From positions 1 through 64,000 of the IMG/VR virus record IMGVR_UViG_3300033993_002218: a DNA stretch of 64,000 bases, one strand, 5' to 3'. Below are positions 268 through 60,672 of the stretch, one piece after another. This DNA comes from a virus (lineage: Duplodnaviria > Heunggongvirae > Uroviricota > Caudoviricetes). The notes beneath the pieces were generated by a model. That model ran no database searches, was not told the origin of the DNA, and worked only from the letters and a program-made list of their open reading frames with translations. Position 1 is the first letter of the stretch, and every line of letters starts with the position of its first letter. The translations under genes were made by a program, and so were the position numbers.

Positions 268-450
268 CGGAGTGGTGTGGTGAACTGATACCAGTATGGG
301 GGCAGACGGGGCGCAGTGCCATCAGGTTGTGCCACTTGTGGAACTGTCCACCATGGCGGATTAGAAGGCGGGTGCCGTGCTAGGATGAAGGTAGAACCTA
401 TTTTTGGTGGGGTTAGGTATAAAAAAAGGGAGCAAAGATGCTCCCGATTC

Positions 451-705
451 TTATAGCATTTTAATCACACCCATTATGGTAGTGATCTCTTCTGGAGTCT
501 GCCAACTGATAACATCCTCCAGCATGTTACCATTGGGACGGATAATCCCGACCTCAAAGGTATTGTGCTCGATGTCACCGTAGATTCCAGAATCCTTCGA
601 ACCTGCTGCAACACTGATCACCCAACCATTCGCAAAGGTATGTCGTGCCAGGCGGGCACCACAGGAATCAAAGAAGTTCAGGGAGGAGAAACTGTAGAAG
701 TTCAT
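451..705 (-). CDS. hypothetical protein (85 aa). ORF-track N-terminal extension trimmed to the internal ATG.
   Basis: The upstream part of ORF 451..933 is low complexity and overlaps a diverged cassette. The internal start MNFY... has the same CA-rich leader as 16..267. Confidence 0.45.
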   Translation of the reverse strand: MNFYSFSSLNFFDSCGARLARHTFANGWVISVAAGSKDSGIYGDIEHNTFEVGIIRPNGNMLEDVISWQTPEEITTIMGVIKML

Positions 706-958
706 CGGAGTGGTGTGGTGAACTGCAGTTATCCTACAGCACAGGGATCGGATCCGTCTATGGGGGGTTGTGCCACTTGTGGAACTGTCCACCATGGCGG
801 TCTTATGGGTCTGTGGTGCCTGTAGACTATGGAGACAATCAGCACCAACACCGGCAGGGTCGCCGGTTGAACAACTATCGCCACCGAACCTGCCATAAAA
901 TAATGGCGCAAAAAGTATAAAAAAAGGAGGCAACTTGTGCCCCCTTAAGTATAATCAA

Positions 959-1201
959 TCAGCGGCAACCGTCATGCCATGCTGTACCGCAACTGTTCGC
1001 GGCGATCATGTCAGCATCGGAAGGTTGCCAACCTTCGATGTATTCCAGGATCTCAATGAGATCCTCAACCTTATCATAAAGGTCGGTGGGGATTGTGAGA
1101 TCGTTAAGGATACGCTCCCAAACCGGGAGAGTAGCACCGGCAACGGTGAAGGCGTCGCAGCGGTTGAGGATGGCGGTTGCCTGGGTGGGATCGGGGATCA
1201 T
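959..1201 (-). CDS. hypothetical protein (80 aa)
   Basis: ORF track. Preferred over the overlapping plus ORF 935..1225 because all credible genes here are on the minus strand. Confidence 0.4.
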   Translation of the reverse strand: MIPDPTQATAILNRCDAFTVAGATLPVWERILNDLTIPTDLYDKVEDLIEILEYIEGWQPSDADMIAANSCGTAWHDGCR

Positions 1202-1281
1202 GGTGCGGTGTGGTTGACTCTGTAAGTCTACAGGATCGGATGGCAGGATGGGGCGCCGGAGCGCCCCGTGGTGGACAGTGG

Positions 1282-2016
1282 TCAGACTGTCACAGGCAGT
1301 TTCTTACTGTAACCGCTGAACTGTTGATTAGAACGACGGGCGCGAATTGCCTTGCCCCAGAGTGAACCTTTCGGTTGAGTTCCATGCACCAACAGAGCAA
1401 ACGGTTTCTCACCGAAACAGTGAGAGTCGTCATGATCTACTTCAAGACCTGCAGCGTTAGCATCACCTTCGGTCATGAAGACTTTAGCATAACGAGTGAA
1501 CAATCCTGCATCAATCAGACTATCCCATTTGCCACCATAAGAGGCAGTGAAGTAGAAGTTAGCAGGCATCTTAAAGTTAAGAAACAACTGCAGACTCTTA
1601 GAGTAGCAGTAGAATTTCAGATCAGGATTGCGCTGTGCAACTTCAATCCAGGCATCCAAATATGCACCAGAGAAAAAGTCTCCGCTCTCATGAATCCGCA
1701 CCAGTTTGGTATTTTTTGTGCGGTGTTCTTGAATGCCCTCATTGATAAGATCTGCTGCAGATCCATCCTTCAGAGCATCAACAATCAGGCGCAGATTGTT
1801 GGCGCGATTGTTGAATGCTGCATCGTATTGCACCTCACTGGATGCAGCAAAGCATCGGAAAATAGTATGCTCGCCATCTTGAATGTGACGCTCGCCGTTA
1901 TCAACAACAACGAACGATTTGCAATACATTGCACCGGGGCAAGTCTTACCTGCTGGCAGGTTAAAGATCAGAGTTTGCTTGCCCAGTTTGGCGTTACCCT
2001 TGGTGAAGTTCAGCAT
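1282..2016 (-). CDS. hypothetical protein (244 aa)
   Basis: Long ORF with ordinary, not low-complexity, amino-acid composition. Preceded by a diverged cassette. Confidence 0.6.
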   Translation of the reverse strand: MLNFTKGNAKLGKQTLIFNLPAGKTCPGAMYCKSFVVVDNGERHIQDGEHTIFRCFAASSEVQYDAAFNNRANNLRLIVDALKDGSAADLINEGIQEHRTKNTKLVRIHESGDFFSGAYLDAWIEVAQRNPDLKFYCYSKSLQLFLNFKMPANFYFTASYGGKWDSLIDAGLFTRYAKVFMTEGDANAAGLEVDHDDSHCFGEKPFALLVHGTQPKGSLWGKAIRARRSNQQFSGYSKKLPVTV

Positions 2017-2108
2017 GGTGGCGGTGTGGTGTGAACTGCAGTTATCCTACAGCATCAGCGGGCAGGATGGGAGGCATCGCTGCCCCCCTTGTGCCAGTTA
2101 TCGGATTG

Positions 2109-2588
2109 TCACACCCAGAGTTTCTCTTTCTTCATGCGATTCACCATTGCAGTAGCAAACTGCCCACAATCGTCACATTCAATAACTGCCTCAATCTGAT
2201 AGCGAAGTTTAGACTTTTCGGAACCCCGGAAAGTATAACGCCAGATTGCGCTGGCAGTTAGCAACAGTTGGCGGCGCTTTGCCCATCCTTCCGCACCTTT
2301 ATTAACCAAATCATGATAAACGCGAATCATGGCACGGTAAGTGTTACCATTGTGGCGCAGTCGGTTGAGTTCATGAACAAACAACTTTCCACCACTAATG
2401 TGACTATCAAGTTCAGTGGCAAAAAAGTCAACGAACTTGAGTGCAAGTTCTTCCACATTGTTAGAAACAACAGGAGCAACTGTTGGCGCCAGAGTGTCAC
2501 TTACAACGCTCAGAATCTTGGCGATCTCATCAATCTTACCTTGAACTTGGTTGCCGTTGATAACAACTTGAACAGTGGCGTTGCTCAT
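2109..2588 (-). CDS. hypothetical protein (159 aa). C-terminal ECDDCGQF.
   Basis: ORF track. Followed by a strong minus-strand terminator at about 2798-2847. Confidence 0.6.
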   Translation of the reverse strand: MSNATVQVVINGNQVQGKIDEIAKILSVVSDTLAPTVAPVVSNNVEELALKFVDFFATELDSHISGGKLFVHELNRLRHNGNTYRAMIRVYHDLVNKGAEGWAKRRQLLLTASAIWRYTFRGSEKSKLRYQIEAVIECDDCGQFATAMVNRMKKEKLWV

Positions 2589-2797
2589 GATTTTAGAAGT
2601 GAGGCGGCGTCATTGGTGCGCCGTTGAGTGAATGATGCCATGCCAGAACCGACCCGATCAACCACCATTGTGCCACTGATCGAACTGGCACAGCATCAGG
2701 GTTTTGTGGGCAGTCTGGCAGTATCTTAAGAGGACAACCAGCACCAACGGGAGAAGGGTATCTCTACTGAACAATACATCGCCACGGAACCTGTCAA

Positions 2798-2847
2798 AAA
2801 ATAATAAGATAAAGAAAAGAAAAAGGATCAGGCACCACCCTGATCCT
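2798..2847 (-). terminator. intrinsic terminator (minus strand)
   Basis: Perfect 9 bp stem AGGATCAGG/CCTGATCCT with a 7 nt loop. On the minus strand it is followed by TTTTTCTTTTCTTTATC. Confidence 0.7.
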
Positions 2848-2945
2848 CAAGATCCACTTTCACCTATCATGTATGCTATGATTATCTGTTCTCTACGCAT
2901 TGAGTGTCTTTTCTTAAGGATGGGGCGCATCTCATTCCCCGTGTA

Positions 2946-3176
2946 TCAAAAGTCTACCATCCAGTCTGGATCATTGTCAAGTGAAACCCAAAAAAAGTAT
3001 TTCTGATTCATAGATGCAAGAAACAGTTTGTTTCCTTTGTGTTGCTCGATGATACATTCATCGTTTGATTGCATCATGTTTGCAAAGCGATTCTTTGCTT
3101 TCTTCGAGATTGGAATAACGAATGCGGTTTCCATGATGTGCTCGTCGAGATGTACATAATCTAGTTGATGTCTCAT
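2946..3176 (-). CDS. hypothetical protein (76 aa, start uncertain)
   Basis: ORF track. The N-terminal codons overlap a CTCGTCGAGAT iteron copy. Alternative starts are METAF (about 3134) or MMQSN (about 3075). Confidence 0.35.
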   Translation of the reverse strand: MRHQLDYVHLDEHIMETAFVIPISKKAKNRFANMMQSNDECIIEQHKGNKLFLASMNQKYFFWVSLDNDPDWMVDF

Positions 3177-3245
3177 GACTCGTCGAGATTGAATGTGCCA
3201 CTAGATGATGTGGCACACCTCGTCGAGTTTTAGAACTCAATCTCG
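3140..3245. repeat. iteron-like cluster, 3-4 copies of CTCGTCGAG(A/T)T spaced about 40 bp
   Basis: Seen directly: ctcgtcgagatg at 3141, ctcgtcgagatt at 3180, ctcgtcgagttt at 3220. The same 9-mer near-palindrome CTCG(T)CGAG recurs at 7160-7341. Confidence 0.5.
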
Positions 3246-3376
3246 TCTAGTGTGGGGACATTATCTTGACTAGATTCACCACTGTCCATCCCAGAACACA
3301 GTGCATCAAGAATCGAAAGGATGCTGTTCCCATCAGTGCCTTGGTCCAGAAGAGTTGTCATAATTTCTTTGTTCAT
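3230..3376 (-). CDS. hypothetical small acidic protein (about 48 aa)
   Basis: Hand-translated MNKEIMTTLLDQGTDGNSILSILDALCSGMDSGESSQDNVPTLDEIEF. GGAG lies 8 nt upstream. It sits between a terminator and the next gene. Below the 60 aa ORF-track cutoff. Confidence 0.3.
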   Translation of the reverse strand: MNKEIMTTLLDQGTDGNSILSILDALCSGMDSGESSQDNVPTLDEIEF

Positions 3377-3384
3377 GAATTACT

Positions 3385-3422
3385 CCAAGAAAGAGAATGA
3401 AAGAGGGAGAAGAATCTCCCTC
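3385..3422 (-). terminator. intrinsic terminator (minus strand)
   Basis: Hairpin GAGGGAGA-AGAA-TCTCCCTC followed on the minus strand by TTTCATTCTCTTTCTT. Confidence 0.55.
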
Positions 3423-3431
3423 TAGATGCTA

Positions 3432-3644
3432 TCAGATCGACAGCAGTCGCTCGCTACGAATAGCAGAGTTGATGAAACTACCAACAGATTCCTCTTTGGC
3501 AATCACAGTATTCAGATCAGACACAAAGTTGCTGGGTTCAGCAACCTTATAGGTATAGTTACGACCACCCATGAAGGTGATGGTCACTTGCTCATCTTGC
3601 ACATCGCTGATGTTTTCGATGGCGCTGGATTGGAACTTGAACAT
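3432..3644 (-). CDS. hypothetical protein (70 aa, trimmed start MFKFQ)
   Basis: The N-terminal 33 codons of ORF 3432..3743 translate the intergenic cassette. The internal ATG is the first one after the cassette. Confidence 0.5.
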   Translation of the reverse strand: MFKFQSSAIENISDVQDEQVTITFMGGRNYTYKVAEPSNFVSDLNTVIAKEESVGSFINSAIRSERLLSI

Positions 3645-3699
3645 AATAAAAACAAAAAAGTAAGGTTTGAGTGAAGTGTTTTGAGCGGGATGCTTCACC

Positions 3700-3764
3700 C
3701 CCGCTGATGAATCTAGTATGGCACGGGTTGGCAGTGGTGTCAACCCTTGTGTGCCACTTACTGA
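3700..3764 (-). promoter_or_regulatory. intergenic promoter-hairpin cassette (type B: TTGACA in hairpin, 17 nt, CATACT)
   Basis: Minus-strand reading: GTGACAGTTCAGTAAGTGGCACA box, hairpin GGGTTGACACCACTGCCAACCC, then CATACT. TTGACA-17-CATACT fits a sigma70 spacing. Confidence 0.5.
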
Positions 3765-3785
3765 ACTGTCACAGTTCAGGTACGG

Positions 3786-4031
3786 TTAACCGTTCACCGC
3801 ACCCAACACCACAGATCTACGATTGTGGTAAGGAGAGGATTCGTCCACAAACGGATTGCCACGCAAATCGGTGTAATCTACGTGCTGCTCAGGATTGAAC
3901 TCCATAGTATCAGCATTTCCACCTCGGTCGTAATAACCACGACCCTCACTGTGGACAACTACTTCAACGATGGCATCCTGATCCTCAAAGGTGGACATCC
4001 ATTCAATCATTTGGCGAACGGTCATTGTCAT
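3786..4031 (-). CDS. hypothetical protein (82 aa, trimmed start MTMTV)
   Basis: GAGGGAGA Shine-Dalgarno about 10 nt upstream of the internal ATG. The upstream part of the ORF is cassette sequence. Confidence 0.5.
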   Translation of the reverse strand: MTMTVRQMIEWMSTFEDQDAIVEVVVHSEGRGYYDRGGNADTMEFNPEQHVDYTDLRGNPFVDESSPYHNRRSVVLGAVNG

Positions 4032-4100
4032 TAGGGGTCTCCCTCTCAACAAATGTAGTATGGCAGCAAATGGGGGGCATTTCAAGCCCCCGTGTGCCAC
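4032..4100 (-). promoter_or_regulatory. intergenic promoter-hairpin cassette (type B)
   Basis: Box GTGACAGTTCAGTAAGTGGCACA, hairpin GGGGGCTTGAAATGCCCCC, then CATACT (TTGAAA-17-CATACT). Confidence 0.5.
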
Positions 4101-4352
4101 TTACTGAACTGTCACACTCTCCACCAGTTCTTGATAGTATTCCTCACCATAGATTGAGGTGATAAGAGATTCCATGTCATTCTCAGATTCATGAGCGAAA
4201 GAATCAACTAGCAGTTCATAAACCATCTGCTCCATTGTTTTCGTATCCATTTCATCTACGACACGATCACAATACTTTTCAACAATCTCAGAAATCTGTT
4301 CGGGAGTGAGTGTCATTTTCTCAGGGGAGAATTGAAGTAACGAGTGAAGCAT
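4101..4352 (-). CDS. hypothetical acidic protein (83 aa)
   Basis: ORF track. The start could instead be the internal MTLTP. Confidence 0.5.
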   Translation of the reverse strand: MLHSLLQFSPEKMTLTPEQISEIVEKYCDRVVDEMDTKTMEQMVYELLVDSFAHESENDMESLITSIYGEEYYQELVESVTVQ

Positions 4353-4547
4353 AGCACCAGAATGATGCCAGTGGAGATCACTCCGACCAGTCCGAGAACT
4401 GTCACAGAGTCGCCAGTAAAGTTGTAAGTGTCAGGTGTCATCGGATCAGAAAAACAAACAAAGGAAGAATTGCCAGAAGATGATACATCTTCAGAGTTTG
4501 GGATGTGCCATCCTTATAGTGGATGATGAGAAGATCTTGGTTCATTA

Positions 4548-4679
4548 TCAGAAATCCCAGTTAGAGTTGAGGAAAGCGTTCCAAGTGTGCTCATCATTGT
4601 CTTCTTCATCCTGCAGTTCAGGAATGTCGAAGATTTCGCCGGGAGCATCAGCAATTTCGATCCAGAGGGTGTCTTCCAT
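4548..4679 (-). CDS. hypothetical small acidic protein (about 43 aa)
   Basis: Hand-translated MEDTLWIEIADAPGEIFDIPELQDEEDNDEHTWNAFLNSNWDF. CA-rich leader ACACACCCGACACC-ATG. Confidence 0.25.
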   Translation of the reverse strand: MEDTLWIEIADAPGEIFDIPELQDEEDNDEHTWNAFLNSNWDF

Positions 4680-4692
4680 GGTGTCGGGTGTG

Positions 4693-4780
4693 TGTGGTTG
4701 ACTTCTTAAGTATAGGGGCACTGTAGGCGATCCTAGGTGCCCCCTGTGCCAGTTGTCAGAGTGTCACACAGGCACCTTGA
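4693..4780 (-). promoter_or_regulatory. intergenic cassette (type C). Shares about 50 bp identity with the copy at 5566-5635.
   Basis: GGTTGACTTCTTAAGTATAGGGGCACTGTAGGCGATCCTAGGTGCCCC then TGTGCCAGTTGTCAGAGTGTCAC. Hairpin GGGGCAC/GTGCCCC. Confidence 0.5.
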
Positions 4781-5004
4781 CGCATTTGAGTATAACCACC
4801 TTGTCCAAGGTATCCAAAGTTCTTATGATGAATACCATAATAGTAGCGGCGAGCATTAGTCTCAGTCAGACCAAGATGATCTGCCATTCTCTTAAAAGAA
4901 TGCTTTGGGTAACATTTCTTATACAGATTAGTCATCTCACACCAGAATGATGCATTTTTGGTGAAGTTGATGCTCTTAGAAGAATGAACCTTGACGAGTT
5001 TCAT
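4756..5004 (-). CDS. hypothetical basic protein (82 aa)
   Basis: ORF track. The C-terminus and stop lie inside the conserved box of the downstream cassette. Confidence 0.5.
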   Translation of the reverse strand: MKLVKVHSSKSINFTKNASFWCEMTNLYKKCYPKHSFKRMADHLGLTETNARRYYYGIHHKNFGYLGQGGYTQMRQGACVTL

Positions 5005-5076
5005 TGGAGTGTCGGTGGTTGACTTGTTAATCTTAAGGCACCCAGAGCGGGTCTTAGGTGCCTCTGGTGCCAGTTG

Positions 5077-5544
5077 TCAGAGTGTCACAAGATCACTGAA
5101 ATCCTGGCGGGATCGTTCCTTTACGATTACCCTATCTCCACCATAAGTCTCACCCCAATACTCACCTTCTCCACCTTTCCACACAATGTAACCTTTGGCA
5201 AGTGAACAGATAGACTTCAGAAACAAATCTTCCTGCCCAGTCTTATTACCATACCCATCAATGTGAAGATTTCCATTCTCACCAATGGAAGTGTAGAAAC
5301 CAACTTCCTGAAGAATCTTTTCAGCATCCTTACAAGTCTCATGATAGTTCCAATCCATCCATGAGAACCAGCAGGACTTATGAGGACCATACTCAGGTGC
5401 CTTATCCTTATCGGGATAAGATCCACCTCGTTTCTGACTGTTAGGAACAGTATAGTTTAGTTCACACATTGCCTTATAAGCAGCATCCAGATTCTCAGCA
5501 GGAATCATAAAGGTGCTTTCTTCAATGCTGACGTAGTAACCCAT
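5077..5544 (-). CDS. hypothetical protein (155 aa, trimmed start MGYYV)
   Basis: The upstream 24 codons are cassette sequence. CA-rich SD-less leader CAACCACCACATCATC-ATG. Confidence 0.55.
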   Translation of the reverse strand: MGYYVSIEESTFMIPAENLDAAYKAMCELNYTVPNSQKRGGSYPDKDKAPEYGPHKSCWFSWMDWNYHETCKDAEKILQEVGFYTSIGENGNLHIDGYGNKTGQEDLFLKSICSLAKGYIVWKGGEGEYWGETYGGDRVIVKERSRQDFSDLVTL

Positions 5545-5616
5545 GATGATGTGGTGGTTGGTTGACTTCTTAAGTATAGGGGCACTGTAGGCGATCCTAG
5601 GTGCCCCTTGTGCCAC

Positions 5617-6087
5617 TTATGCTGCTGTCACATAGTTGGGAATCTCCACCCGTTCAGCAGCATCAAACAGACCCGTCTTGTATGCTTTCCAGTTATCATT
5701 CAGATCGAACAGGTAAGCATACTCTTCACCACCCAGATTTCCTGAGATAAACTCATCGAAACTGGTGTGTTGAATGTCGATTTCTTCTCCACGCTCAGTA
5801 TAAAAGAGTGGTTGAGGATCACGATCATTCTCATACATCATGTATCCTTGAGAGTCATGAATGTACTCTCCCTTATCATCACGAAGAGGAGATTCATGAT
5901 TCCAAGAACCACGAGTCCTCAGTGATGAGATACCACCACCATCAATCAGTTCTTGAACATCATCACGGTCAAGATAATGTTGAACCAGAAGTCTACCATT
6001 CCCTTCAGGATAACCATCCCAGTGGCAGTAGACAGAAACTACAGTGTGATCGGGCATTTCGATGCCAATGCGTGAACGAGTTCCCAT
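5617..6087 (-). CDS. hypothetical protein (156 aa)
   Basis: ORF track. Leader CATACT...CACCACACATCACTG-ATG. Confidence 0.6.
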   Translation of the reverse strand: MGTRSRIGIEMPDHTVVSVYCHWDGYPEGNGRLLVQHYLDRDDVQELIDGGGISSLRTRGSWNHESPLRDDKGEYIHDSQGYMMYENDRDPQPLFYTERGEEIDIQHTSFDEFISGNLGGEEYAYLFDLNDNWKAYKTGLFDAAERVEIPNYVTAA

Positions 6088-6161
6088 GTCAGTGATGTGT
6101 GGTGAACGATGTAAGTATGGCAGGGATCCTGAAGAACCTCAAGACCCCTTGTGCCAGTCCC

Positions 6162-6599
6162 TCAACTGGACATCTTTACATACTGCTCCACAATGTTGGA
6201 GATTTCAGTAGGACCAATCTGTGTACCATCCTTCATTACAAATGCCTGGTAAGGATCGACACCTGCCCGAGAATCAATTGTGGTGGAATTGATGGTCATG
6301 AACTTAGAAATCATGACATCTTGGCGGATTTGATCACTCAACCAATCCCAGAGATCAGTGTCATGATTATCCTCTTCGGTGTCACAGTTAATGAGAACTT
6401 CATTCCCATTCTGCCACACGTACTTTTCAAACTCCGTGATCACATCATCATACTCCATTTCTGTCAACCATGTGATACTCTCACTGAGATCATCTACATG
6501 ATTACCAACGAAATCAACCAGAGATTTCAGATAATCTTCCAGGTTGAAATCATCAGCAACTTGACACTTGGAGGTGCAAACAAATTGAGTGTAGGACAT
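6162..6599 (-). CDS. hypothetical acidic protein (145 aa)
   Basis: ORF track. Cassettes flank it on both sides. Confidence 0.6.
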   Translation of the reverse strand: MSYTQFVCTSKCQVADDFNLEDYLKSLVDFVGNHVDDLSESITWLTEMEYDDVITEFEKYVWQNGNEVLINCDTEEDNHDTDLWDWLSDQIRQDVMISKFMTINSTTIDSRAGVDPYQAFVMKDGTQIGPTEISNIVEQYVKMSS

Positions 6600-6668
6600 G
6601 AGGTGTCTCAGGTACGAATGTAATGTAGCAGAGCACCGGCAGGAAGTCCAGTGCCATTGTGCCAGTTG

Positions 6669-6857
6669 TCAGAGTGTCCTACCAGTCTGCTCAACCTCAT
6701 GCTTAATCATCGCAATTGCCCATAGAGCATTCTCACCTTCCGACAGATTCGGAAAGTTGTTCTCATAAACCTTCAAAACCGTTGCAATAGTCTCCAGAGC
6801 AGTGAAATCAGTTCGGTTGATGTTCAGTTCCATGAGAGTTGTGTGAACTGCAGTCAT
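6669..6857 (-). CDS. hypothetical protein (62 aa, trimmed start MTAVH)
   Basis: The ORF-track start lies inside the terminator hairpin. The internal ATG immediately follows the hairpin and T-run. Confidence 0.45.
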   Translation of the reverse strand: MTAVHTTLMELNINRTDFTALETIATVLKVYENNFPNLSEGENALWAIAMIKHEVEQTGRTL

Positions 6858-6864
6858 TATAGAC

Positions 6865-6912
6865 CACAAAGCGGCACGGGATCTCATGTCCTTGTGCCGC
6901 TTTTTTTATTGT
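6865..6912. terminator. bidirectional intrinsic terminator
   Basis: aaa-GCGGCACGGGATCTCATGTCCTTGTGCCGC-tttttttatt. A-run on one side and T-run on the other. Confidence 0.65.
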
Positions 6913-7159
6913 CACATCACATAAAGGGATCTAGGTCTTTGATGTTATAATGTACTTCTTCCCCACCTTCCAATTGAAGTACTTCGCGCCAATTAATATC
7001 TTCCAGATCCAGATCATCATAACACTCGATGTCTAGAACAACTCTTACCTGTCGTTTTTGTGCGATCATGAGAATTAAATGCGATTGTACTGAATTCTAT
7101 CATGCATAGTGGCGATATGCAAGACTTTGATAGTCTTGACCATCTCGCGCATAATCCTC

Positions 7160-7824: not shown

Positions 7825-8294
7825 TTGTACAGATAAGATCCTGCCCAGTCAGCACGACGATAGCAATTATCACGGGATTGCTTATCCATGAGATTAAAAC
7901 GCACATGCTTGGCAGGAGACTTCCAGGTTGCAGGTTTATACACTTCACCAGTCTTCTTATCAATGAAGGCATGAATACTCTTTTGCTTCACACTACCATC
8001 ATGATTGACACCAGTTTCCATTTCAATACGCAGATACTTACGACTCTCCACAATATAGAAATTCATACGATAATCATAAGTGCCATTGCGAATTTGCTCC
8101 AGACACTTCTCATGATAGGGAACATAAGATTCATCCACAATACCATTCTTGGCAATGGCATTCTGATGAGATTTCGTAGTGTGAAGACGATAGTTCTCAT
8201 CCAGAGCATTGACCAGAGATTCAGTATAACGAAGCACATCGTTCACTTGTGCCTGAACCATAGGACGGGTTGCAACGAAGTCAGAGAAGGTCAT
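7821..8294 (-). CDS. hypothetical protein (157 aa)
   Basis: ORF track. Preceded by a cassette. Confidence 0.6.
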   Translation of the reverse strand: MTFSDFVATRPMVQAQVNDVLRYTESLVNALDENYRLHTTKSHQNAIAKNGIVDESYVPYHEKCLEQIRNGTYDYRMNFYIVESRKYLRIEMETGVNHDGSVKQKSIHAFIDKKTGEVYKPATWKSPAKHVRFNLMDKQSRDNCYRRADWAGSYLYK

Positions 8295-8377
8295 GTGAGG
8301 TTTCTGTGTGTATGAGACTATTGTAGGGCATCCAGAGGAGTCTGAAGTGCCCTGCTGTGCCAGTTAATCAGGTGTCC
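8295..8377 (-). promoter_or_regulatory. intergenic cassette (type A: box, hairpin, TATAAT/TACAAT, SD)
   Basis: tgtgtgtatgagactattgtagggcatccagaggagtctgaagtgccc then tgtgccagttaatcaggtgtcc. Confidence 0.55.
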
Positions 8378-8634
8378 TCAACAATCAAGCAATAACGGCA
8401 CTGGAAAGCAAAAGTTTCTTTTTGCCAGGTTTTCTTCACACCATTCTCTTCCCAAGAATAAACAACCTCATACCAAGGGTCAGTAGAACCATAAGAATTA
8501 AAACCCTCAACGGTCACATAACCCTTGGAACCATCTGCCCGTGCCCAACGAGAACCAACTTGGATTTCATGATGTTTGAAGAAATGACGGACAACTGCTT
8601 TGTGTCCATCTATGATTTCAGTTTCGTAATTCAT
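8368..8634 (-). CDS. hypothetical protein (88 aa)
   Basis: ORF track. Confidence 0.55.
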   Translation of the reverse strand: MNYETEIIDGHKAVVRHFFKHHEIQVGSRWARADGSKGYVTVEGFNSYGSTDPWYEVVYSWEENGVKKTWQKETFAFQCRYCLIVEDT

Positions 8635-9510: not shown

Positions 9511-9644
9511 TTGTGAACCTCGTAGTAATCGTACTCAAAATCGGCAGGAAGTTGTGCAGTAGCAGCAGCAAGACAACTTGCAATCACCTTGTACCATGCA
9601 CCATACTCATCGAAGAAGAAGTACCGTTTGGGTCTCATGTTCAT
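9507..9644 (-). CDS. hypothetical small protein (about 45 aa)
   Basis: Hand-translated MNMRPKRYFFFDEYGAWYKVIASCLAAATAQLPADFEYDYYEVHK. It directly follows a cassette. Its stop overlaps the next ATG as ATGA. Confidence 0.35.
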   Translation of the reverse strand: MNMRPKRYFFFDEYGAWYKVIASCLAAATAQLPADFEYDYYEVHK

Positions 9645-9728
9645 GGGAGTGTTCCCTTGACTACCTTTGTATTATAAGGCATCTGGTTCCCCTGTGAAGT
9701 GCCCTGTGTGCCAGTTGTTCAGGTGTCC
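9645..9728 (-). promoter_or_regulatory. intergenic cassette (type A)
   Basis: tgtattataaggcatctggttcccctgtgaagtgccc then tgtgtgccagttgttcaggtgtcc. Confidence 0.55.
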
Positions 9729-10303
9729 AGAAGTGCCAGAATTGCCTTAAGTGTATCCTTAAGTTTCTTGTTTTCTTCCTCAAGTTCTTTAACTTTTTCA
9801 GAAAGTGAAGTGGTATCTTGAGAAGGTTCTTCTTTCCCATCAAGAATGGTTTCTGTTACATTTGCACCCTCAAGGTTGGCACCCTCAAGGTTGGCATACC
9901 TAAGGTCGGCACGATAAAGGTAGGCACCCCTAAGGTCGGCACCCCTAAGGTCGGCACGATAAAGGTCAGCACCCCTAAGGATGGCACCCTCAAGGTAAGC
10001 ACCCCTAAGGTCAGCACCCCTAAGGTCAGCACCCCTAAGGGCGGCACAACTAAGGTTGGCATCCCTAAGGTAGGCACCCCTAAGGATGGCACCATAAAGG
10101 TCGGCACCCCTAAGGGCGGCACAACTAAGGTCGGCACCCTCAAGGTCGGCACCACTAAGGTTAGTACCCCTAAGGTTAGCACTCACAAGGTTAGCACTCA
10201 CAAGGTGAGCACCGCTAAGGTTAGCACCCACAAGGTAAGCACACCCAAGGTAAGCACCCACAAGGTTAGCACCAGGTTTGATTTCGTATCCGTTGATGTT
10301 CAT
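9719..10303 (-). CDS. pentapeptide-repeat protein (about 194 aa) with a C-terminal coiled-coil tail
   Basis: About 28 tandem A(D/N)L(R/E/S)G pentapeptides (GADLRGADLRGAYLEGA...). The ORF-track start is a TTG inside the cassette. The first ATG is MNINGYE. Confidence 0.75.
   Translation of the reverse strand: MNINGYEIKPGANLVGAYLGCAYLVGANLSGAHLVSANLVSANLRGTNLSGADLEGADLSCAALRGADLYGAILRGAYLRDANLSCAALRGADLRGADLRGAYLEGAILRGADLYRADLRGADLRGAYLYRADLRYANLEGANLEGANVTETILDGKEEPSQDTTSLSEKVKELEEENKKLKDTLKAILALLDT
9850..10270. repeat. tandem 15-bp DNA repeat (ggcacccctaaggtc-like) encoding the pentapeptide repeats
   Basis: Near-identical 15-mers seen directly. Confidence 0.8.
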
Positions 10304-10385
10304 TTGGTTGGGTTGCTTATGAATCAATTATAAGGCATCTGGTTCCCCTGTGAAGTGCCCTGTGTGCCAGTTGTTCAGGTGTCCT
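10304..10385 (-). promoter_or_regulatory. intergenic cassette (type A). Near-identical to the copy at 9645-9728.
   Basis: ttataaggcatctggttcccctgtgaagtgccctgtgtgccagttgttcaggtgtcc is repeated verbatim. Confidence 0.55.
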
Positions 10386-10551
10386 CGTCGTTCAAAATAG
10401 TGATGAGTTCTTCAGTAATTTTATCCAGTTTCCTACCAAAATGCTTTGCTGTGGAATTGTCGTGACAATCAAGCAAAAAATCAGAAACACTTTCAAGTTG
10501 AGGAAGAATTTTAACTCGGATTAGTTGTTCTTTGGTAATTTGGTTAGTCAT
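10375..10551 (-). CDS. hypothetical small protein (about 58 aa)
   Basis: Hand-translated MTNQITKEQLIRVKILPQLESVSDFLLDCHDNSTAKHFGRKLDKITEELITILNDEDT. Its stop TGA lies inside the cassette box. Confidence 0.35.
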   Translation of the reverse strand: MTNQITKEQLIRVKILPQLESVSDFLLDCHDNSTAKHFGRKLDKITEELITILNDEDT

Positions 10552-14514: not shown

Positions 14515-14516
14515 AC

Positions 14517-22698: not shown

Positions 22699-22699
22699 A

Positions 22700-50890: not shown

Positions 50891-51080
50891 CAGTCAATAC
50901 ACTATCAACACCATCCTTCCAACCATCATCATAACCTTCTCGATACTCAATTTCCATAACCTTAGCAGCAAACCTCATAGCAACCTCACGAAATGCGTTG
51001 TTCATAGCACCAATCATATCAGGAGACATACCAAATTCAGTTCCATCTCCCCAGAGTTCCATTAGTCGTTGGTCAGTCAT
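50874..51080 (-). CDS. hypothetical protein (68 aa). Member of the ...EGYDDGW... small-protein family.
   Basis: ORF track. Confidence 0.45.
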   Translation of the reverse strand: MTDQRLMELWGDGTEFGMSPDMIGAMNNAFREVAMRFAAKVMEIEYREGYDDGWKDGVDSVLTGAIGG

Positions 51081-51104
51081 CAGTCCTTTGTGTGTATAAG
51101 AGTA

Positions 51105-51323
51105 TTATAAGGCATCTTGTGCCCCTGTGGAGGGGTCTTGTGCCAGTTCTTCAAGTGTCATCTCACATCTTTTCTCATAAGCATCACAGACACTTTTTAA
51201 TACATCTGTAGTCATAGGCATACTCAATTCAGCAAATGTCTTATTACAAGTATGGCAAGTGATTTTACAAGGATTTCCCTGCGAAATCCATATATCACAT
51301 TTTTTAGGTTCAATCATTTTCAA
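51105..51323 (-). CDS. hypothetical Cys-rich protein (72 aa) whose last 18 codons are encoded by the intergenic cassette
   Basis: The frame reads through box and hairpin (…MTLEELAQDPSTGAQDAL) and stops at TAA inside the TTATAAT -10 of cassette 51081-51165. Confidence 0.45.
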   Translation of the reverse strand: MKMIEPKKCDIWISQGNPCKITCHTCNKTFAELSMPMTTDVLKSVCDAYEKRCEMTLEELAQDPSTGAQDAL

Positions 51324-56486: not shown

Positions 56487-56717
56487 TTAGTAATCAAATG
56501 GATTGTCGTAAATGGTGTTTTCATTCATAACATCAACTTCATCTTCGTGAAACTCAAACTCACCTTCATCCAATTGTGTGGCAAGTTTTTTAATGTGTTC
56601 AATTCGTTTCTGCCTATCCTCAGGGTTAGTAAAAACCTCACAAGGAGTATAAAAGGTGTTCCATTCCTCCCTACAACCAGTGTCAGTATCGTAGAATAGC
56701 AAATAAACTTTAGTCAT
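56487..56717 (-). CDS. hypothetical acidic protein (76 aa)
   Basis: ORF track. Confidence 0.45.
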   Translation of the reverse strand: MTKVYLLFYDTDTGCREEWNTFYTPCEVFTNPEDRQKRIEHIKKLATQLDEGEFEFHEDEVDVMNENTIYDNPFDY

Positions 56718-56786
56718 CAGCAGTCCTTTGTGTATATGAGAGTATTATAAGGCAAAAAGGGCACCTGTGGAGATGCCCTGTGTCAG

Positions 56787-57002
56787 TTATTCAGGTGTCC
56801 CCAACCAATCATCATCATTATCAAATTCTTCCATAGCAAGAATATAATATTCACCAGGAGAATTTGTGGTATCATAATTATAATCAAGATGCTCATCCAG
56901 ATTATCAGTTGGGAAAATACTACCATCAAAACGAACTAAAACTTTAGTTTCGGGATTTACATTTTTGAGAATTTCAAGAAGTTCTTTTACTTTGATGCTC
57001 AT
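56787..57002 (-). CDS. hypothetical protein (71 aa). ELLEILK family.
   Basis: ORF track. Confidence 0.45.
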   Translation of the reverse strand: MSIKVKELLEILKNVNPETKVLVRFDGSIFPTDNLDEHLDYNYDTTNSPGEYYILAMEEFDNDDDWLGTPE

Positions 57003-57146
57003 TTCAGTAATGTGTGTGTTTGTTGTGTATGAGAGTATTATAGGGCATCAGGAGGCATCTGTGGGATGCTCTTGTGCCAGTTTCTAAAGCACCACTGGTG
57101 GCAACCGTCCAAAAAATATCCAGTTCTTTTTTATCAGGTAGTTCTT

Positions 57147-57395: not shown

Positions 57396-57979
57396 TTTAC
57401 TTTACCGTGAAGAGGGCAGTCACCATTCACCCATTTTTTATCATCGGGCATTTCTTCATTATCCATCACAGGACACTTACAACCCATCATCACAGCAGAA
57501 CTACTACCAGGAACCAGACCTTTCCATTCCTTATGATACTCTGCAGTCATCGCATCCATTTCCCCATCAGTATATTGAGGATTATCAGGATTTTCAAAAC
57601 GTGAGAGTTTTGCTTTCAGGTCACGGATTTCTGTTTCCAGTTTTCCTACATAATTATCCTGTTTAGTCTCATATTCAAGGATTTTTTCACGATAATCCTC
57701 AACCAATTTCAAATCATAATCCTCAGCAGTCTTACGCATTTCTTCGGTGCTACGCATATCATTAAAGGCAACATAGCAAGCACCTTTGGCAATACCTGCC
57801 TCATTATGACCCATCGCACCAGCAAACTTGGCAAACAGTTGGAAGAGTTGAATGCTATTCAGGTCTTCTGCAGGGCACTCAAAAGTAATGTGCTCTTCTG
57901 GAATCATCTCATCATCGTAGATACCACCTTTATGATCCCAAGTGGAATCAAATTTCAATGTAACTTTTGCGGAGTGCAT
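57392..57979 (-). CDS. hypothetical protein with a C-terminal Cys cluster (about 195 aa, trimmed start MHSAK)
   Basis: C-terminal ...GCKCPVMDNEEMPDDKKWVNGDCPLHG is a zinc-ribbon-like cluster. The ORF-track start lies in the cassette. Confidence 0.5.
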   Translation of the reverse strand: MHSAKVTLKFDSTWDHKGGIYDDEMIPEEHITFECPAEDLNSIQLFQLFAKFAGAMGHNEAGIAKGACYVAFNDMRSTEEMRKTAEDYDLKLVEDYREKILEYETKQDNYVGKLETEIRDLKAKLSRFENPDNPQYTDGEMDAMTAEYHKEWKGLVPGSSSAVMMGCKCPVMDNEEMPDDKKWVNGDCPLHGKVK

Positions 57980-58062
57980 AATGCGGGTTTTGCGGAATAC
58001 AAATACTATAAAGCACCCCAACCCGAAAGTCAAGGTGCCTGTGCCAGTTGTTAAAGTGGATT

Positions 58063-58287
58063 TCAGAACTTATAATCGCCCTCATAGTATGCGGAGATTA
58101 CTTTATCGTAGTTTGCTGTTGGACAATTTGATAAACGATGATGAAGATGATTTAACCCAGAGATCTCATATTCTTCAACATTAATGTCTTGTAGAAGACC
58201 AATAAGACTCTTTCGTTCGTTTGATGTCCTCGGATTACGAAGAGCACAACGATTCATTCCTTCTAGATTCCTGTAAGTTCTGGACAT
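58063..58287 (-). CDS. hypothetical protein (74 aa, trimmed start MSRTY)
   Basis: GAGGATAGGAAA-ATG Shine-Dalgarno upstream of the internal start. Confidence 0.45.
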   Translation of the reverse strand: MSRTYRNLEGMNRCALRNPRTSNERKSLIGLLQDINVEEYEISGLNHLHHRLSNCPTANYDKVISAYYEGDYKF

Positions 58288-58575: not shown

Positions 58576-58788
58576 TTATGCACCAAATCCTTTAGATTTG
58601 GATTTCTTCTTATCTATAACATTTATAAGATCCAAAAAATCTGGAATCTGACAATGCTGCCACCAATACACCTGAGTATCCTCCCAGTTATCAAAAATTA
58701 CCTTTGTATCATTTTTTAGAGTGATTTCATAGGTATGTCTATCATAAGGAGCATCAGATGTACAAGAAAAACTACTCAATACCATCAA
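58576..58788 (-). CDS. hypothetical protein (70 aa)
   Basis: ORF track. Confidence 0.45.
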   Translation of the reverse strand: MMVLSSFSCTSDAPYDRHTYEITLKNDTKVIFDNWEDTQVYWWQHCQIPDFLDLINVIDKKKSKSKGFGA

Positions 58789-58975
58789 ACTTCCTCATGA
58801 AACGAACACAATTCTTAAATTTCCTCCATTCATCATCTGAGAAATTATCAGATGCATAAGGAATACCAACAACTGTGGCACAAACACGATTGACATTTAT
58901 ACGAATCATCATGTCTTCTGCAAAAACAGGATTGTTGCAAAGAACAATGAATGGAATAAGAAGTGCTTTTTTCAT
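58772..58975 (-). CDS. small secreted protein (67 aa)
   Basis: MKKALLIPFIVLCNNPVFA signal-peptide-like N-terminus. Confidence 0.45.
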   Translation of the reverse strand: MKKALLIPFIVLCNNPVFAEDMMIRINVNRVCATVVGIPYASDNFSDDEWRKFKNCVRFMRKFDGIE

Positions 58976-59205
58976 TTTAGGAAGTTTTCAAGACTAGATG
59001 TGGTTTTCTTTCTGGACATTTTAACTTGTTTTTCAATATAAGTCTTTGCAGTCTTATAGTTGTTAGTAGTATGAACTTGCTGTCCCTTGTGAACAATAAT
59101 AAACTTATTTCCACAAGGAACTGCTGCCCATTCCATATCCTTACTTACATATCCATTTGGATCTCCAGGTTTCGGATTCAGAATACCTTCGTTTTGAGTG
59201 TTCAT
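58972..59205 (-). CDS. hypothetical protein (77 aa)
   Basis: ORF track. Confidence 0.45.
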   Translation of the reverse strand: MNTQNEGILNPKPGDPNGYVSKDMEWAAVPCGNKFIIVHKGQQVHTTNNYKTAKTYIEKQVKMSRKKTTSSLENFLK

Positions 59206-59345
59206 CAGTAGATAATTGTAGAGGACATTACCCGTGCATTCGGATATTGTGCAAGAGCAACTTGAATTGCCTCTTGACGATTGCGGGCATAACAGTCAAC
59301 ATAGAAAGTTTGACCACTGACCATGCAAGTAACACGATGCTTCAT
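59202..59345 (-). CDS. hypothetical small protein (about 47 aa)
   Basis: Hand-translated MKHRVTCMVSGQTFYVDCYARNRQEAIQVALAQYPNARVMSSTIIY. ATGA overlap downstream. Confidence 0.3.
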
Positions 59346-59355
59346 AATTTAAACC

Positions 59356-60606
59356 TCACTTGTTAATTGTAGAAATTACAGGTTGCCCCTGAACAAATGC
59401 CATATCAGCAACAGATTGCAGTCGTCGTGCGGTTGCAATCCCAGTATTAGCATACACCGGAACATGAATAAAACCATAGGATTTCACATAATCTTCGGTT
59501 TTACCAGGAGTCAGAGACCCCTCTGAGAGACGCCTAGAATCCTCTGGATGAAGGCGCACCACACGCCCAATGGTTTGCACCATAGAAGTATAGTCCATGT
59601 TCCTCATGAGGATGCAGGAGGTCAATCCTGGGCAATCAATACCCTCAGAAAGAATGGAGTAGTGAAGAAGAACAAACTTCTTGGTAGAATCTGCACCGTA
59701 TTCCTTGAGAGTTTCAAAGAATACATCACGCTTGACTTTTTGATTGTTAATGAATGCACCATGCTTAGCAGTAATCCACAGAATCTCATAACCATGAGAC
59801 TGAATCTCAGTCATAAAATCAGTTTCGGCAAGCATACGAATCATTACCTTAGTATTCGGTGCTGCAACCAGAACCTTTTCCATGTTCTCTTCATTCAGAA
59901 TAGTATCCAGAAGAGTCATGCAATCATGTTCTGCACCAAATTCTTTATTACGAACAACATTCCTTTCCTGAGTATTGATTTGTGGAGGAACAATGAATCC
60001 CTCCTTAACCATATCAGAAGCAGAAATATTCGTAATCATTTGACCATACACATGACTCCAGTTCATACCAGGTTTGTTGTAAACATTAGAATACTTTGGA
60101 GTTGCAGTATAAGAATAGAATCGCTTGGACTTCTGAGACAATTGCTCCACATAAGGAAAGAAATCCTTACGAACGGAATTATGTGCCTCATCCATATGAA
60201 CGGTATCAATTTCAATACCAGACTCAATCAGACGATGAAGAGAATGATACGTTGTAAAGATCAGTTTATGACCTTCAACATTCTCATGCCATTCACGAAT
60301 CATCTTAGGACTGGTAGTGCAGAAATGATCAGTATCACCAGAATGCACATGAAGAATGTGAGCATTATTAATGTACTTGATGTAATCCGAACACAACTGA
60401 GAAGTCAACAGGATTCGTGGAGAAATCACAACAACAGTTTGATGCTGAGACTTCTTATACTCACGAATAGTATCTCCGATACCAATCAGAGTCTTACCTG
60501 CACCAGTCACGGCACAGACAACACCTCTGGAATATTTGGAGAGCATGTCAAGAGCACTTTGCTGATGAGGACGAAACTGAATCATGGGGTGATTGGTTGA
60601 CTTCAC
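59356..60606 (-). CDS. SF2 DEAH-box helicase (416 aa)
   Basis: Walker A CAVTGAGKTLIGI. DEAH box HMDEAHN. Motif III TATP. C-terminal helicase fold with TIGRVVR (motif VI-like). Confidence 0.8.
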   Translation of the reverse strand: MKSTNHPMIQFRPHQQSALDMLSKYSRGVVCAVTGAGKTLIGIGDTIREYKKSQHQTVVVISPRILLTSQLCSDYIKYINNAHILHVHSGDTDHFCTTSPKMIREWHENVEGHKLIFTTYHSLHRLIESGIEIDTVHMDEAHNSVRKDFFPYVEQLSQKSKRFYSYTATPKYSNVYNKPGMNWSHVYGQMITNISASDMVKEGFIVPPQINTQERNVVRNKEFGAEHDCMTLLDTILNEENMEKVLVAAPNTKVMIRMLAETDFMTEIQSHGYEILWITAKHGAFINNQKVKRDVFFETLKEYGADSTKKFVLLHYSILSEGIDCPGLTSCILMRNMDYTSMVQTIGRVVRLHPEDSRRLSEGSLTPGKTEDYVKSYGFIHVPVYANTGIATARRLQSVADMAFVQGQPVISTINK

Positions 60607-60672
60607 GTATTATAGCAATAAAAAATCCCCTTGTAGGGGATGGTGTGGACGGTTCTTCAGGTGTCCTATAGA
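60607..60672 (-). promoter_or_regulatory. variant cassette (GGTTGACTTCAC..TATAAT; A-run/hairpin/T-run) upstream of the helicase gene
   Basis: ggttgacttcacgtattatagcaataaaaaatccccttgtaggggatggtgtggacggttcttcaggtgtcc. Confidence 0.5.

Follow-up and report, generated by a model that had tools for sequence, protein, structure and literature searches.

Putative portable early-promoter cassettes of a T4-like cyanophage carry an upstream element shared with cyanobacterial Yfr2 promoters

The viral DNA analysed here, a stretch of 64,000 nt (positions 1 to 64,000 of IMG/VR record IMGVR_UViG_3300033993_002218; Caudoviricetes) hereafter called the window, carries 44 copies of an intergenic cassette of ~90 nt. 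The order of its parts is constant: a 24-bp box, a spacer that forms a GC hairpin in about three quarters of the copies, a -10 hexamer and a leader ending at the ATG of the next gene. They probably serve a T4-like cyanophage (Kyanoviridae) as portable early-promoter modules that the RNA polymerase of the host can read. They share one anatomy, keep a fixed spacing between box and -10 hexamer, and conserve a hairpin of variable sequence. Their upstream element also occurs in host promoters of Yfr2 RNA genes, and a related phage contains a joint produced by recombination between two cassettes. The window consists of densely packed small open reading frames (ORFs) on the minus strand, is ~90% coding, and presumably corresponds to the hyperplastic, early region of such a phage.

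All 44 cassettes (Table 1) were defined with a profile hidden Markov model (HMM) built from 41 aligned copies, at a cut-off of E<=0.01. They lie between 265 and 60668, without exception on the minus strand and in the direction of the genes, in agreement with the first-pass annotation of this DNA, which had counted about 40. De novo repeat finding recovers the same cassette families. The box GGACACYTGAMCAACTGGCACA has 21 matches in the window at up to 3 mismatches, against 0 expected, as anticipated from the claim that each cassette holds a conserved box, and the -10/leader string TTATAATACTCTCATACACA has 16 against 0.03 expected; all of them are on the minus strand. The box core AACTGGCACA is found 27-33 nt (mostly 29-31) 5' of a TATAAT-like hexamer at ~40 sites. 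What had been singled out as 'type C' (GGTTGACTTCTTAAGTATAGG) does not represent a box of its own: read in reverse complement, it corresponds to a TATACT -10 and its leader in copies with an ordinary box.

Cassettes occupy 42 of the 187 minus-strand ORF junctions and 33 of the 52 gaps of at least 60 nt. The median distance from one to the next is 967 nt (range 235-5,640), and the block headed by a cassette has a median of ~3 ORFs. Stretches free of cassettes reach 5.6 kb, and the earlier statement that cassettes stand between almost all genes is wrong. The stop codon of the upstream ORF is a TGA within the box in 14 copies, and in most others a TGA or TAA lies 1-17 nt from it, so the association of box and stop codon described earlier is confirmed. 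Near-identical copies, also described earlier, are real: 9671-9728 and 10327-10384 are 100% identical over 58 nt, and 4690-4771 and 5554-5635 are 87% identical over 82 nt. Only 7 paralogous ORF pairs occur in the window and none accounts for the cassette copies, which excludes segmental duplication as their source and upholds the view that the copies were placed independently and are not duplicates of one locus.

In the window and its relatives the box is a 24-bp dyad, (TGT)G-M-CA-S-TT-N4-AA-S-TGGCACA, with ~50% G+C. Conserved positions of the 24-mer are G4, C6, A7, T9 and T10 on one side and A15, A16, T18, G19, G20, C21, A22, C23 and A24 on the other, and five symmetric pairs are conserved (G4/C21, C6/G19, A7/T18, T9/A16 and T10/A15). 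Some boxes (2669-2692 and 21434-21457) are near-perfect palindromes. Type A, the common form, keeps TGGCACA in its proximal half but has degenerated to AGGACA in its distal half, and the left-half variants (GTGCCA, GTGACA and AGGACA) are never matched by a compensating change in the right half (TGGCAC). This decay of one half-site without compensation indicates a DNA site recognized by a protein and not an RNA stem. Box and -10 are separated by 29-31 nt in 40 of the 44 copies of the window; among 124 unique cassettes on other contigs, 97% have a distance of 29-30 nt, and the ~30-bp distance is also kept in cassettes devoid of any hairpin. Since the distance is fixed despite a free spacer sequence, the place of the box appears to be set by the promoter, near -66 to -43 if the transcription start is placed ~7 nt after the -10 hexamer.

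The -10 element is a perfect TATAAT in 28 of the 44 cassettes, its A2 and T6 are present in all 44, and the ATG follows after 20-30 nt in 40 of them. In 26 of 41 copies, a -35-like hexamer (at least 4 of 6 positions matching TTGACA, for a background of 5% per position) precedes the -10 by 16-18 bp and is located in the loop or 5' arm of the hairpin; examples are TTGACA, TTGAAA, TTGACT, TTCACA, TTTACA and TCCACA. The earlier observation that TTGACA and TTGAAA stand exactly 17 nt from CATACT in the copies at ~3759 and ~4102 is correct. An independent promoter scan of 32-52 kb returned cassettes as its top sigma-70-type matches. Leaders are unstructured, fall into at least four families and may or may not contain a Shine-Dalgarno (SD) sequence, so that the -10/leader segment is not invariant, contrary to what had been proposed.

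The spacer between box and -10 folds into a stem of at least 5 bp with a free energy of -6 kcal/mol or lower in 33 of 41 copies, and the spacers of the window have a median folding z-score of -2.85 relative to shuffled sequences. As the first-pass annotation had described, the stems differ between copies (GGGCAC/GTGCCC, GGGCATCC/GGGTGCCC, CTCCAGA/TCTGGA, CCCCT/AGGGG, GGGTTCTCAG/CTGGGAACCC and others). The 124 unique cassettes of other contigs contain 62 different hairpin stems, and 64% of their spacers reach -8 kcal/mol or lower compared with 4% of random 30-mers. Selection thus seems to act on pairing rather than on sequence, which argues for a role in the single-stranded state, as RNA, in the transcript arriving from upstream.

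The phage box and the upstream element of host Yfr2 promoters are one and the same. When one genome per bacterial species was scanned with the strict palindrome TGTGMCASTT-N4-AASTGGCACA, 55 genome loci were obtained, whereas ~9 are expected by chance according to our own estimate; ~18 are cyanobacterial, ~14 belong to Acidobacteriota and ~7 are mis-binned phage contigs. In 10 cyanobacterial loci, from Anabaena, several Nodularia, Cyanocohniella, a Synechococcales metagenome-assembled genome (MAG), Cyanothece and two uncultured cyanobacteria, the box stands 38-40 nt upstream of a Cyano-1 RNA gene (RF01701, Yfr2 family). The host order is box, ~30 nt, a TATTAT-like -10, ~6 nt and the RNA 5' end UUGUGUGUGAGGAG. 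Host and phage promoters are therefore collinear, column for column, with the same box consensus. In Anabaena and Cyanocohniella, the second of the tandem Yfr2 copies also has a box in front of it, in degenerate form. Spacers of the host Yfr2 promoters contain no hairpin, which suggests that the phage added the hairpin to a spacer whose length is constrained. A further site lies on a cyanobacterial chromosome contig of a Trichormus MAG (locus L143, 4620-4730), where a protein gene has a phage-like leader (CATAAGCAACCAAGGAG...ATG) preceded by a box, a ~30-nt spacer and ATAGTA; it represents either phage-derived DNA or a host gene that is controlled in the same way.

In marine picocyanobacteria, yfr2 promoters carry a palindrome, CGRE1, that starts 55-57 nt upstream of the start site and is bound by PMM1637, a cyanobacteria-specific regulator of the GntR/PlmA type that activates transcription under high light and nitrogen starvation (PMC6191309). 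Because the same box, at the same distance, precedes Yfr2 genes in several cyanobacterial lineages and PMM1637 binds a palindrome at this position in picocyanobacteria, the cassette box would most likely be a hijacked host transcription-factor site. By analogy, the best guess for the factor is PlmA (GntR/PlmA-type).

A possible second connection to Yfr2 concerns the leader. The commonest one, ACUCUCAUACACAC... (18 cassettes, e.g. 36602-36632, 51078-51103 and 11565-11592), is complementary to the Yfr2 5' end UUGUGUGUGAGGAG, with predicted duplexes of -14 to -17 kcal/mol compared with a control median of -6.1 and with 11% of controls at -10 or lower. It also resembles the Yfr1 motif ACUCCUCACAC, with which Yfr2 is known to pair (PMC6778093). 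As the copies share descent, the complementarity counts as one or two independent observations and is a lead, not a finding.

The cassettes resemble the promoter-early stem-loop (PeSL) modules of T4-type phages, as the first-pass annotation had recognized. A PeSL is defined by an upstream stop codon, a sigma-70-like promoter, a stem-loop overlapping this promoter, an SD sequence and a start codon, among the small ORFs of hyperplastic regions (PMC2839356, PMC4122927). The PeSLs of RB49/phi1, T4/PST and KVP40/nt-1 are the same composite module, and their stem-loop may overlap the -35 (Arbiol et al. 2010, PMC2839356; Comeau et al. 2014, PMC4122927). Likewise, cassettes fill the intergenic space from a stop codon at their 5' end to a start codon, with or without an SD sequence, at their 3' end, contain a sigma-70-like promoter and a stem-loop, and are concentrated among small ORFs. 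In both systems, the modules lie at indel boundaries of close relatives, with crossovers inside the module. For the cassettes, this was seen in the related phage ACG-2014f, and the evidence from the window itself is indirect, a comparison of junction adjacencies. Two traits distinguish the cassettes: their stem-loop always lies in the spacer between box and -10, and a 24-bp dyad box occupies the place of the AT-rich stretch found 5' of the -35 in PeSLs. The identification with PeSLs thus stands for stop codon, promoter, stem-loop, SD/start and shuffling, but not for the placement of the -35, and for the terminator reading that came with it in about a third of the copies only.

Cassettes are widespread in cyanophages. 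The pattern AACTGGCACA-N28-32-TATAAT matches more than 120 IMG/VR contigs, and the HMM, a model that the first-pass annotation had suggested building from the copies, detects 207 cassettes in 90 of the related loci retrieved. Isolates with cassettes include S-PM2, ACG-2014f, B3/B23, S-SRM01 and S-CRM01. The palindromic type-B variant matches 125 records of marine Synechococcus phages, nearly all of them ACG-2014f among the matches listed; one ACG-2014f isolate has ~35 cassettes in 35 kb. In S-PM2, the first 25 kb, ORFanage included, contain at least 7. A study of that ORFanage noticed one such hairpin and judged the density of PeSLs too low to matter (PMC4503421). An orthologue of cassette 20 is found in phage B3, upstream of gp211, a gene for a CCA-adding enzyme. 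In S-CRM01, a full cassette (box, hairpin and TAGAAT; locus L121, 4022-4041) precedes rnaseH, and the phage record (HQ615693, 78808-78827) annotates it only as 'Rho independent terminator'.

Gene order breaks frequently at cassettes. Neighbours remain adjacent in related contigs at 2 of 26 cassette junctions, compared with 34 of 94 other junctions (Fisher p = 0.004). Where one of the two neighbours has been exchanged, a cassette stays with the retained gene in 20-26% of cases versus 5-8% at other junctions. The clearest case comes from ACG-2014f, where isolates C90 and US4 are 99% identical on either side of a 3,543-bp segment found only in C90. This segment encodes a hypothetical gene, a DNA methyltransferase and a helicase, and is flanked by two cassettes, while US4 has a single chimeric cassette, in which box and hairpin correspond to the left copy of C90, and -10 and leader to the right one. 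Arbiol et al. (PMC2839356) described exactly such a deletion/insertion joint for PeSLs. Within the window, all four pairings of two spacer types with two leader types are present (one four-gamete case). Another difference between the two isolates is an HNH endonuclease gene with a downstream cassette, present in C90 (L124, 28674-29199) and absent from US4 (L125, 25129-25172); it looks like a mobile endonuclease bringing its own cassette for the gene behind it.

These features suggest the following scheme. Upon infection, the host RNA polymerase holoenzyme would start at ~40 cassettes, probably aided by a host factor bound to the box, the latter being the putative site of a dimeric transcription factor for which a GntR/PlmA-type activator is the best candidate. 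Each cassette would drive a block of 1 to ~20 small genes, and the hairpin of the next cassette would terminate or attenuate the preceding transcript, or protect its 3' end, so that units are insulated. Because ~90 nt of near-identical sequence, the only long repeats present, head each block, cassettes could act as homologous crossover points. Recombination from cassette to cassette would add, remove or swap blocks and preserve their expression signals, since an incoming block would bring or find a complete stop-promoter-leader junction. A bolder and doubtful extension is that cyanomyoviruses plug dozens of early gene blocks into the PlmA-Yfr2 circuit of the host, in a mimicry of both promoter and RNA. 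If so, early phage transcription would be switched on by a light- and nitrogen-responsive GntR/PlmA activator of the host, and phage early mRNAs and host Yfr1/Yfr2 could titrate or regulate each other.

Several observations weigh against this reading. Promoter activity, start sites, early timing, termination and the identity of the box-binding protein are all deduced from sequence features. The -35 is poor in 15 of 41 copies, and 12 copies in the GC-rich first 7 kb have a weak -10 (CATACT, TAGGAT). Only ~14 of 44 hairpins have at least three T directly after the GC stem, and 3 cassette hairpins in 32-52 kb pass a terminator scan (at least 5 T in 8). The bidirectional terminator assumed by the first-pass annotation therefore fits about a third of the copies; in the other two thirds T-runs are short or absent, and the hairpin would at most serve attenuation, 3'-end protection or insulation. 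Gaps of at least 40 nt lacking a cassette are as unstable as cassette junctions (1 of 15 conserved), so the enrichment of breakpoints is not specific, and cassettes mark module borders without necessarily causing the breaks.

The link with the host regulator also meets objections. The box could not be demonstrated in yfr2 promoters of Synechococcus or Cyanobium, the actual hosts; the matches to the strict palindrome came from Nostocales, a Synechococcales MAG, Cyanothece and one uncultured cyanobacterium. The authors of the CGRE1 study state that the element is restricted to marine picocyanobacteria, and its description in words (21-22 nt, GTTG/GTTA flanks 13-14 nt apart and a GTG(A)TCAC-like centre) differs from the arrangement of the box (PMC6191309). 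The assignment to PlmA rests on analogy because of this mismatch. GTT[GA]-N13/14-[CT]AAC is absent upstream of the Cyano-1 genes examined. A metagenome scan with TGGCACA-N34-44-TGTGAGGAG gave at least 120 essentially random matches, with no Yfr2 gene among the matches listed, and does not bear on the question either way. The literature searched contains no link of CGRE1 or PMM1637 to phages. Finally, the Acidobacteriota palindromes (L129, L131, L135, L138, L145, L148, L151, L155 and others), which are the same 24 bp, exceed the chance estimate.

Alternative explanations account for parts of these data. The cassettes could be classical PeSLs and nothing else, with a box maintained as a patch of homology for recombination, or by recent copying, and devoid of any role in transcription. 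Box and -10/leader are indeed the longest identical stretches of the cassettes, the ACG-2014f joint falls inside a cassette and near-identical copies exist in the window. This explanation is nevertheless unlikely, given that the same element stands at the same 30-bp distance before host small RNA genes that are not shuffled, that the spacing is constant in spite of the free spacer sequence, and that conservation is dyad-symmetric, which homology-driven recombination does not need. A phage-encoded regulator might instead bind the box, for example for early shut-off at the middle/late switch, and manipulate host Yfr2 promoters as well. We regard this as quite improbable: conservation of the element across cyanobacterial orders, before a gene whose regulator there is known to be a host protein (PMC6191309), speaks against it, and positive evidence for a phage DNA-binding candidate is lacking, though no search aimed at one was made, even if one operator on dozens of co-regulated early promoters is typical phage design and the operator is conserved over phages of different Synechococcus.

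Two further models place the box in the transcript or in the core promoter. That box and hairpin form an RNA-level 3'-end module (double hairpin, terminator or processing signal), next to a separate simple TATAAT promoter, is very improbable. The common type-A box cannot fold and changes in its left half are uncompensated, the host box precedes the Yfr2 start and stays outside the Yfr2 transcript, and the distance to the -10 is fixed even in hairpin-less copies; on the other side, palindromic variants could form a stem of 7-10 bp, a stop codon lies in or beside the box, and pairing of the second hairpin is conserved independently of sequence. The mechanism of the first-pass annotation, in which TTGAAC of the box is the -35 and extrusion or removal of the hairpin restores its spacing, is hardly credible. 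TTGAAC or TTGAAG does occur in many type-A boxes, 39-40 bp from the -10, but this hexamer coincides with the stop codon and the variable middle of the dyad, is absent from type-B, other variant and host boxes, and is not a conserved -35. Moreover, a canonical -35-like hexamer is already available at 16-18 bp in 26 of 41 copies, and both hairpin-less copies and host promoters with the same box retain the 30-bp spacing. Compared with these four models, a portable promoter read by host polymerase remains the reading we prefer.

Other known elements were considered for the box and rejected. For a sigma-54 promoter, TGGCAC fits the -24 element, but TTGC is missing at N5. Cyanobacteria are not known to possess sigma-54. 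Sites for NtcA (GTA-N8-TAC) and CRP (TGTGA-N6-TCACA), DnaA boxes, HLR1/RpaB sites and Pho boxes disagree in spacing or sequence. An integron attC-like site would have its GTT and AAC cores in the reverse order, and no integrase is involved. A homing-endonuclease target is excluded since 44 self-targets would be suicidal. A miniature inverted-repeat transposable element does not fit either, as terminal repeats and target duplications are lacking and orientation and position relative to genes are strict. An outer stem pairing GGCA of the box with TGCC just 5' of the -10 was discarded because its variants are uncompensated.

Both PeSLs and sigma-70-like early promoters of cyanophages are already known. 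New features appear to be the dense cassette family of cyanomyoviruses, its fixed architecture and the upstream element shared with host Yfr2 promoters, in the light of the literature searched, from which the genome papers of S-CRM01 and S-PM2 are excepted. In that literature PeSLs are undescribed in cyanophages, and a search combining the box with cyanophages returned nothing relevant. The early promoters predicted in S-PM2 and Syn9 have host-type -35 and -10 elements, as the cassettes do, and the unmodified host polymerase is assumed to read them in the absence of AsiA/MotA and Alt/Mod homologues (PMC2984593); the descriptions found give only -35 and -10 and mention neither box, fixed spacer, hairpin nor cassette character. 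Yfr2 promoters (Rfam Cyano-1, RF01701) share with cassettes a dyad element just 5' of the -35 region and a sigma-70-type promoter, but they drive a non-coding RNA and have hairpin-free spacers; the CGRE1/PMM1637 control (Lambrecht et al. 2018, PMC6191309) is, as described in words, not obviously the same arrangement. Like Rho-independent terminators, cassettes have a GC hairpin after a gene, with a T-run in about a third of them, yet most lack a usable T-run and their hairpin lies inside a promoter and encloses the -35.

Early transcription of T4-like cyanophages proceeds without Alt/Mod and AsiA/MotA, and only generic sigma-70-like motifs had been reported for it. One conserved operator before ~40 early blocks, common to a host small RNA promoter with a known regulator, offers a testable handle and could explain how early phage expression tracks the light and nutrient state of the host. 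It is also a candidate operator for the PlmA regulon outside marine picocyanobacteria, described as 'yet unknown' (PMC7344720). With the natural joint of ACG-2014f, modular shuffling of the PeSL type now includes cyanophages, for which it had been considered unlikely. In practice, annotators of cyanophage genomes and metagenomes can use the cassette to mark early transcription units.

Table 1. Cassettes of the window (all on the minus strand)
No.	Cassette	Strand	Box	-10 hexamer	Remarks
1	265-351	-	328-351 (GTGGACAGTTCCACAAGTGGCACA)	CATACT 293-298	ATG 265-267
2	703-792	-	769-792	TAGGAT 731-736 (-10-like)	ATG 703-705
3	2014-2113	-	2090-2113	TAGGAT 2044-2049	unusually long 40-nt spacer
4	2586-2692	-	2669-2692 (TGTGCCAGTTCGATCAGTGGCACA)	CATCAT (poor)	weak; near-perfect palindromic box
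5	3132-3217	-	3194-3217 (palindromic)	TAGATT (poor)	weak; hairpin absent
6	3696-3773	-	3750-3773	CATACT 3715-3720	TTGACA 17 nt from -10
7	4029-4116	-	4093-4116	CATACT 4057-4062	TTGAAA 17 nt from -10; type matches ACG-2014f
8	4677-4768	-	4745-4768	TATACT 4709-4714	leader formerly called 'type C'
9	5002-5089	-	5066-5089	TAAGAT 5030-5035	
10	5542-5632	-	5609-5632	TATACT 5573-5578	87% identical to cassette 8
11	6085-6173	-	6150-6173	CATACT 6114-6119	12-bp hairpin
12	6597-6681	-	6658-6681	TACATT 6622-6627	
13	6831-6916	-	6893-6916	TATAAT 6856-6861	
14	8292-8379	-	8356-8379	TACAAT 8320-8325	box contains TGA of ORF 8368-8634
15	9642-9730	-	9707-9730	TATAAT 9671-9676	
16	10301-10386	-	10363-10386	TATAAT 10327-10332	58 nt identical to cassette 15; other leader
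17	11565-11652	-	11629-11652	TATAAT 11593-11598	hairpin GGCAcTCCAGA/TCTGGAtGCC
18	11863-11954	-	11931-11954	TATAAT 11896-11901	
19	12431-12523	-	12500-12523	TATAAT 12464-12469	
20	14429-14515	-	14492-14515	TATAAT 14455-14460	upstream of CCA tRNA nucleotidyltransferase gene
21	18878-18966	-	18943-18966	TATAAT 18907-18912	
22	20187-20269	-	20246-20269	TATAAT 20213-20218	27-nt spacer
23	20679-20766	-	degenerate, ...AACTGGACTA	TATAAT 20708-20713	hairpin absent
24	21370-21457	-	21434-21457 (TGTGCCACCTCTTGAACTGGCACA)	TATAAT 21399-21404	palindromic box
25	22619-22701	-	22678-22701	TATAAT 22642-22647	hairpin GGGCATCC/GGGTGCCC then TTT
26	24829-24914	-	24891-24914	TATAAT 24855-24860	TTCACA in loop
27	26185-26270	-	26247-26270	TATAAT 26211-26216	
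28	28511-28594	-	28571-28594	TATAAT 28536-28541	no stable hairpin
29	31995-32080	-	32057-32080	TATAAT 32021-32026	hairpin absent
30	32459-32551	-	32528-32551	TATGAT 32492-32497	
31	34044-34131	-	34108-34131	TATAAT 34072-34077	
32	36035-36122	-	36099-36122	TATAAT 36063-36068	TTGAAA-17-TATAAT; hairpin passes terminator scan
33	36333-36418	-	36395-36418	TATAAT 36359-36364	TTGAAA-17-TATAAT
34	36602-36692	-	36669-36692	TATAAT 36633-36638	consensus copy adjoining NAMPT stop codon
35	40106-40226	-	40203-40226	TATAAT 40166-40171	long 57-nt leader; upstream of NMNAT-Nudix gene
36	40537-40623	-	40600-40623	TATAAT 40565-40570	
37	44191-44277	-	44254-44277	TATGAT 44219-44224	
38	47012-47100	-	47077-47100	TATAAT 47041-47046	TTTACA-17-TATAAT; hairpin + T6 passes terminator scan
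39	48121-48207	-	48184-48207	TATAAT 48149-48154	
40	51078-51162	-	51139-51162	TATAAT 51104-51109	
41	56715-56802	-	56779-56802	TATAAT 56744-56749	
42	57000-57096	-	57073-57096 (half box, right half only)	TATAAT 57037-57042	
43	57977-58063	-	58040-58063 (right half box)	TATAGT 58005-58010	TTGACT-17-TATAGT
44	60583-60668	-	60645-60668 (variant, 1-nt insertion)	TATAAT 60609-60614	hairpin CCCCT/AGGGG then T6; upstream of UvsW-like helicase gene

Recognizable genes of the window encode NAMPT, an NMNAT-Nudix fusion, a CCA tRNA nucleotidyltransferase, an SPFH protein and a UvsW-like helicase, with virion proteins beyond 60.8 kb. A search of 50,697 phage records found relatives at the DNA level only in the Synechococcus myoviruses S-SRM01, B3 and B23, with 76-78% identity over ~5% of a 20-kb query; the phage thus has no close sequenced relative. 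A tRNA search of the window found none, and the curated covariance models of Rfam 15 gave no match in it at gathering threshold, nor did Rfam at that threshold in phage loci L121-L124. In the S-PM2 RefSeq record NC_006820.1 (L123, 17414-19333), annotated tRNA genes overlap coding sequences and are recovered neither by ARAGORN nor by Rfam; their coordinates are probably misplaced.

The first part of the window (1-7000) has a GC content of 0.44-0.52, compared with ~0.37 elsewhere. Its cassettes combine palindromic 'type B' boxes with weak -10 elements (CATACT, TATACT and TAGGAT) and resemble those of marine Synechococcus phage ACG-2014f and S-PM2. The higher GC content together with this resemblance suggests a horizontally acquired block. 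Strong sigma-70-like promoters without a box (TTGACT-17-TATAAT) occur among the minus-strand sites 45022-45050, 44453-44481 and 48859-48876; the same set includes a hairpin with a T-run and a TATTAT remnant, possibly a degraded 'half' cassette.

Repeats other than cassettes were also noticed. A tandem array of four or five paralogous small ORFs at 29960-31587 (minus strand) codes for repeat proteins rich in Gly and Tyr (MTEYFYPVGYGSGSGYG...TISTRTRRRD); their DNA has a 12/18-nt period and a local GC content of ~0.50, and is cassette-free between the ORFs. ORF 9719-10327 (minus strand), with a 15-nt DNA period, encodes a pentapeptide-repeat protein (A[DN]LxG-type) and sits between the two cassettes that are 100% identical over 58 nt. 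At 61993-63764 (minus strand), virion-protein-like ORFs contain a 51-nt tandem repeat (17 aa, NNFFG...NTTG) and match virion structural and tail-spike proteins in PHROG; the cassette-bearing region ends there. Lastly, there is a 112-nt direct repeat (14532-14643 and 15345-15456, 92% identical), and the small ORF 14517-14642 is a duplicate of part of the adjoining ORF 14673-15455.

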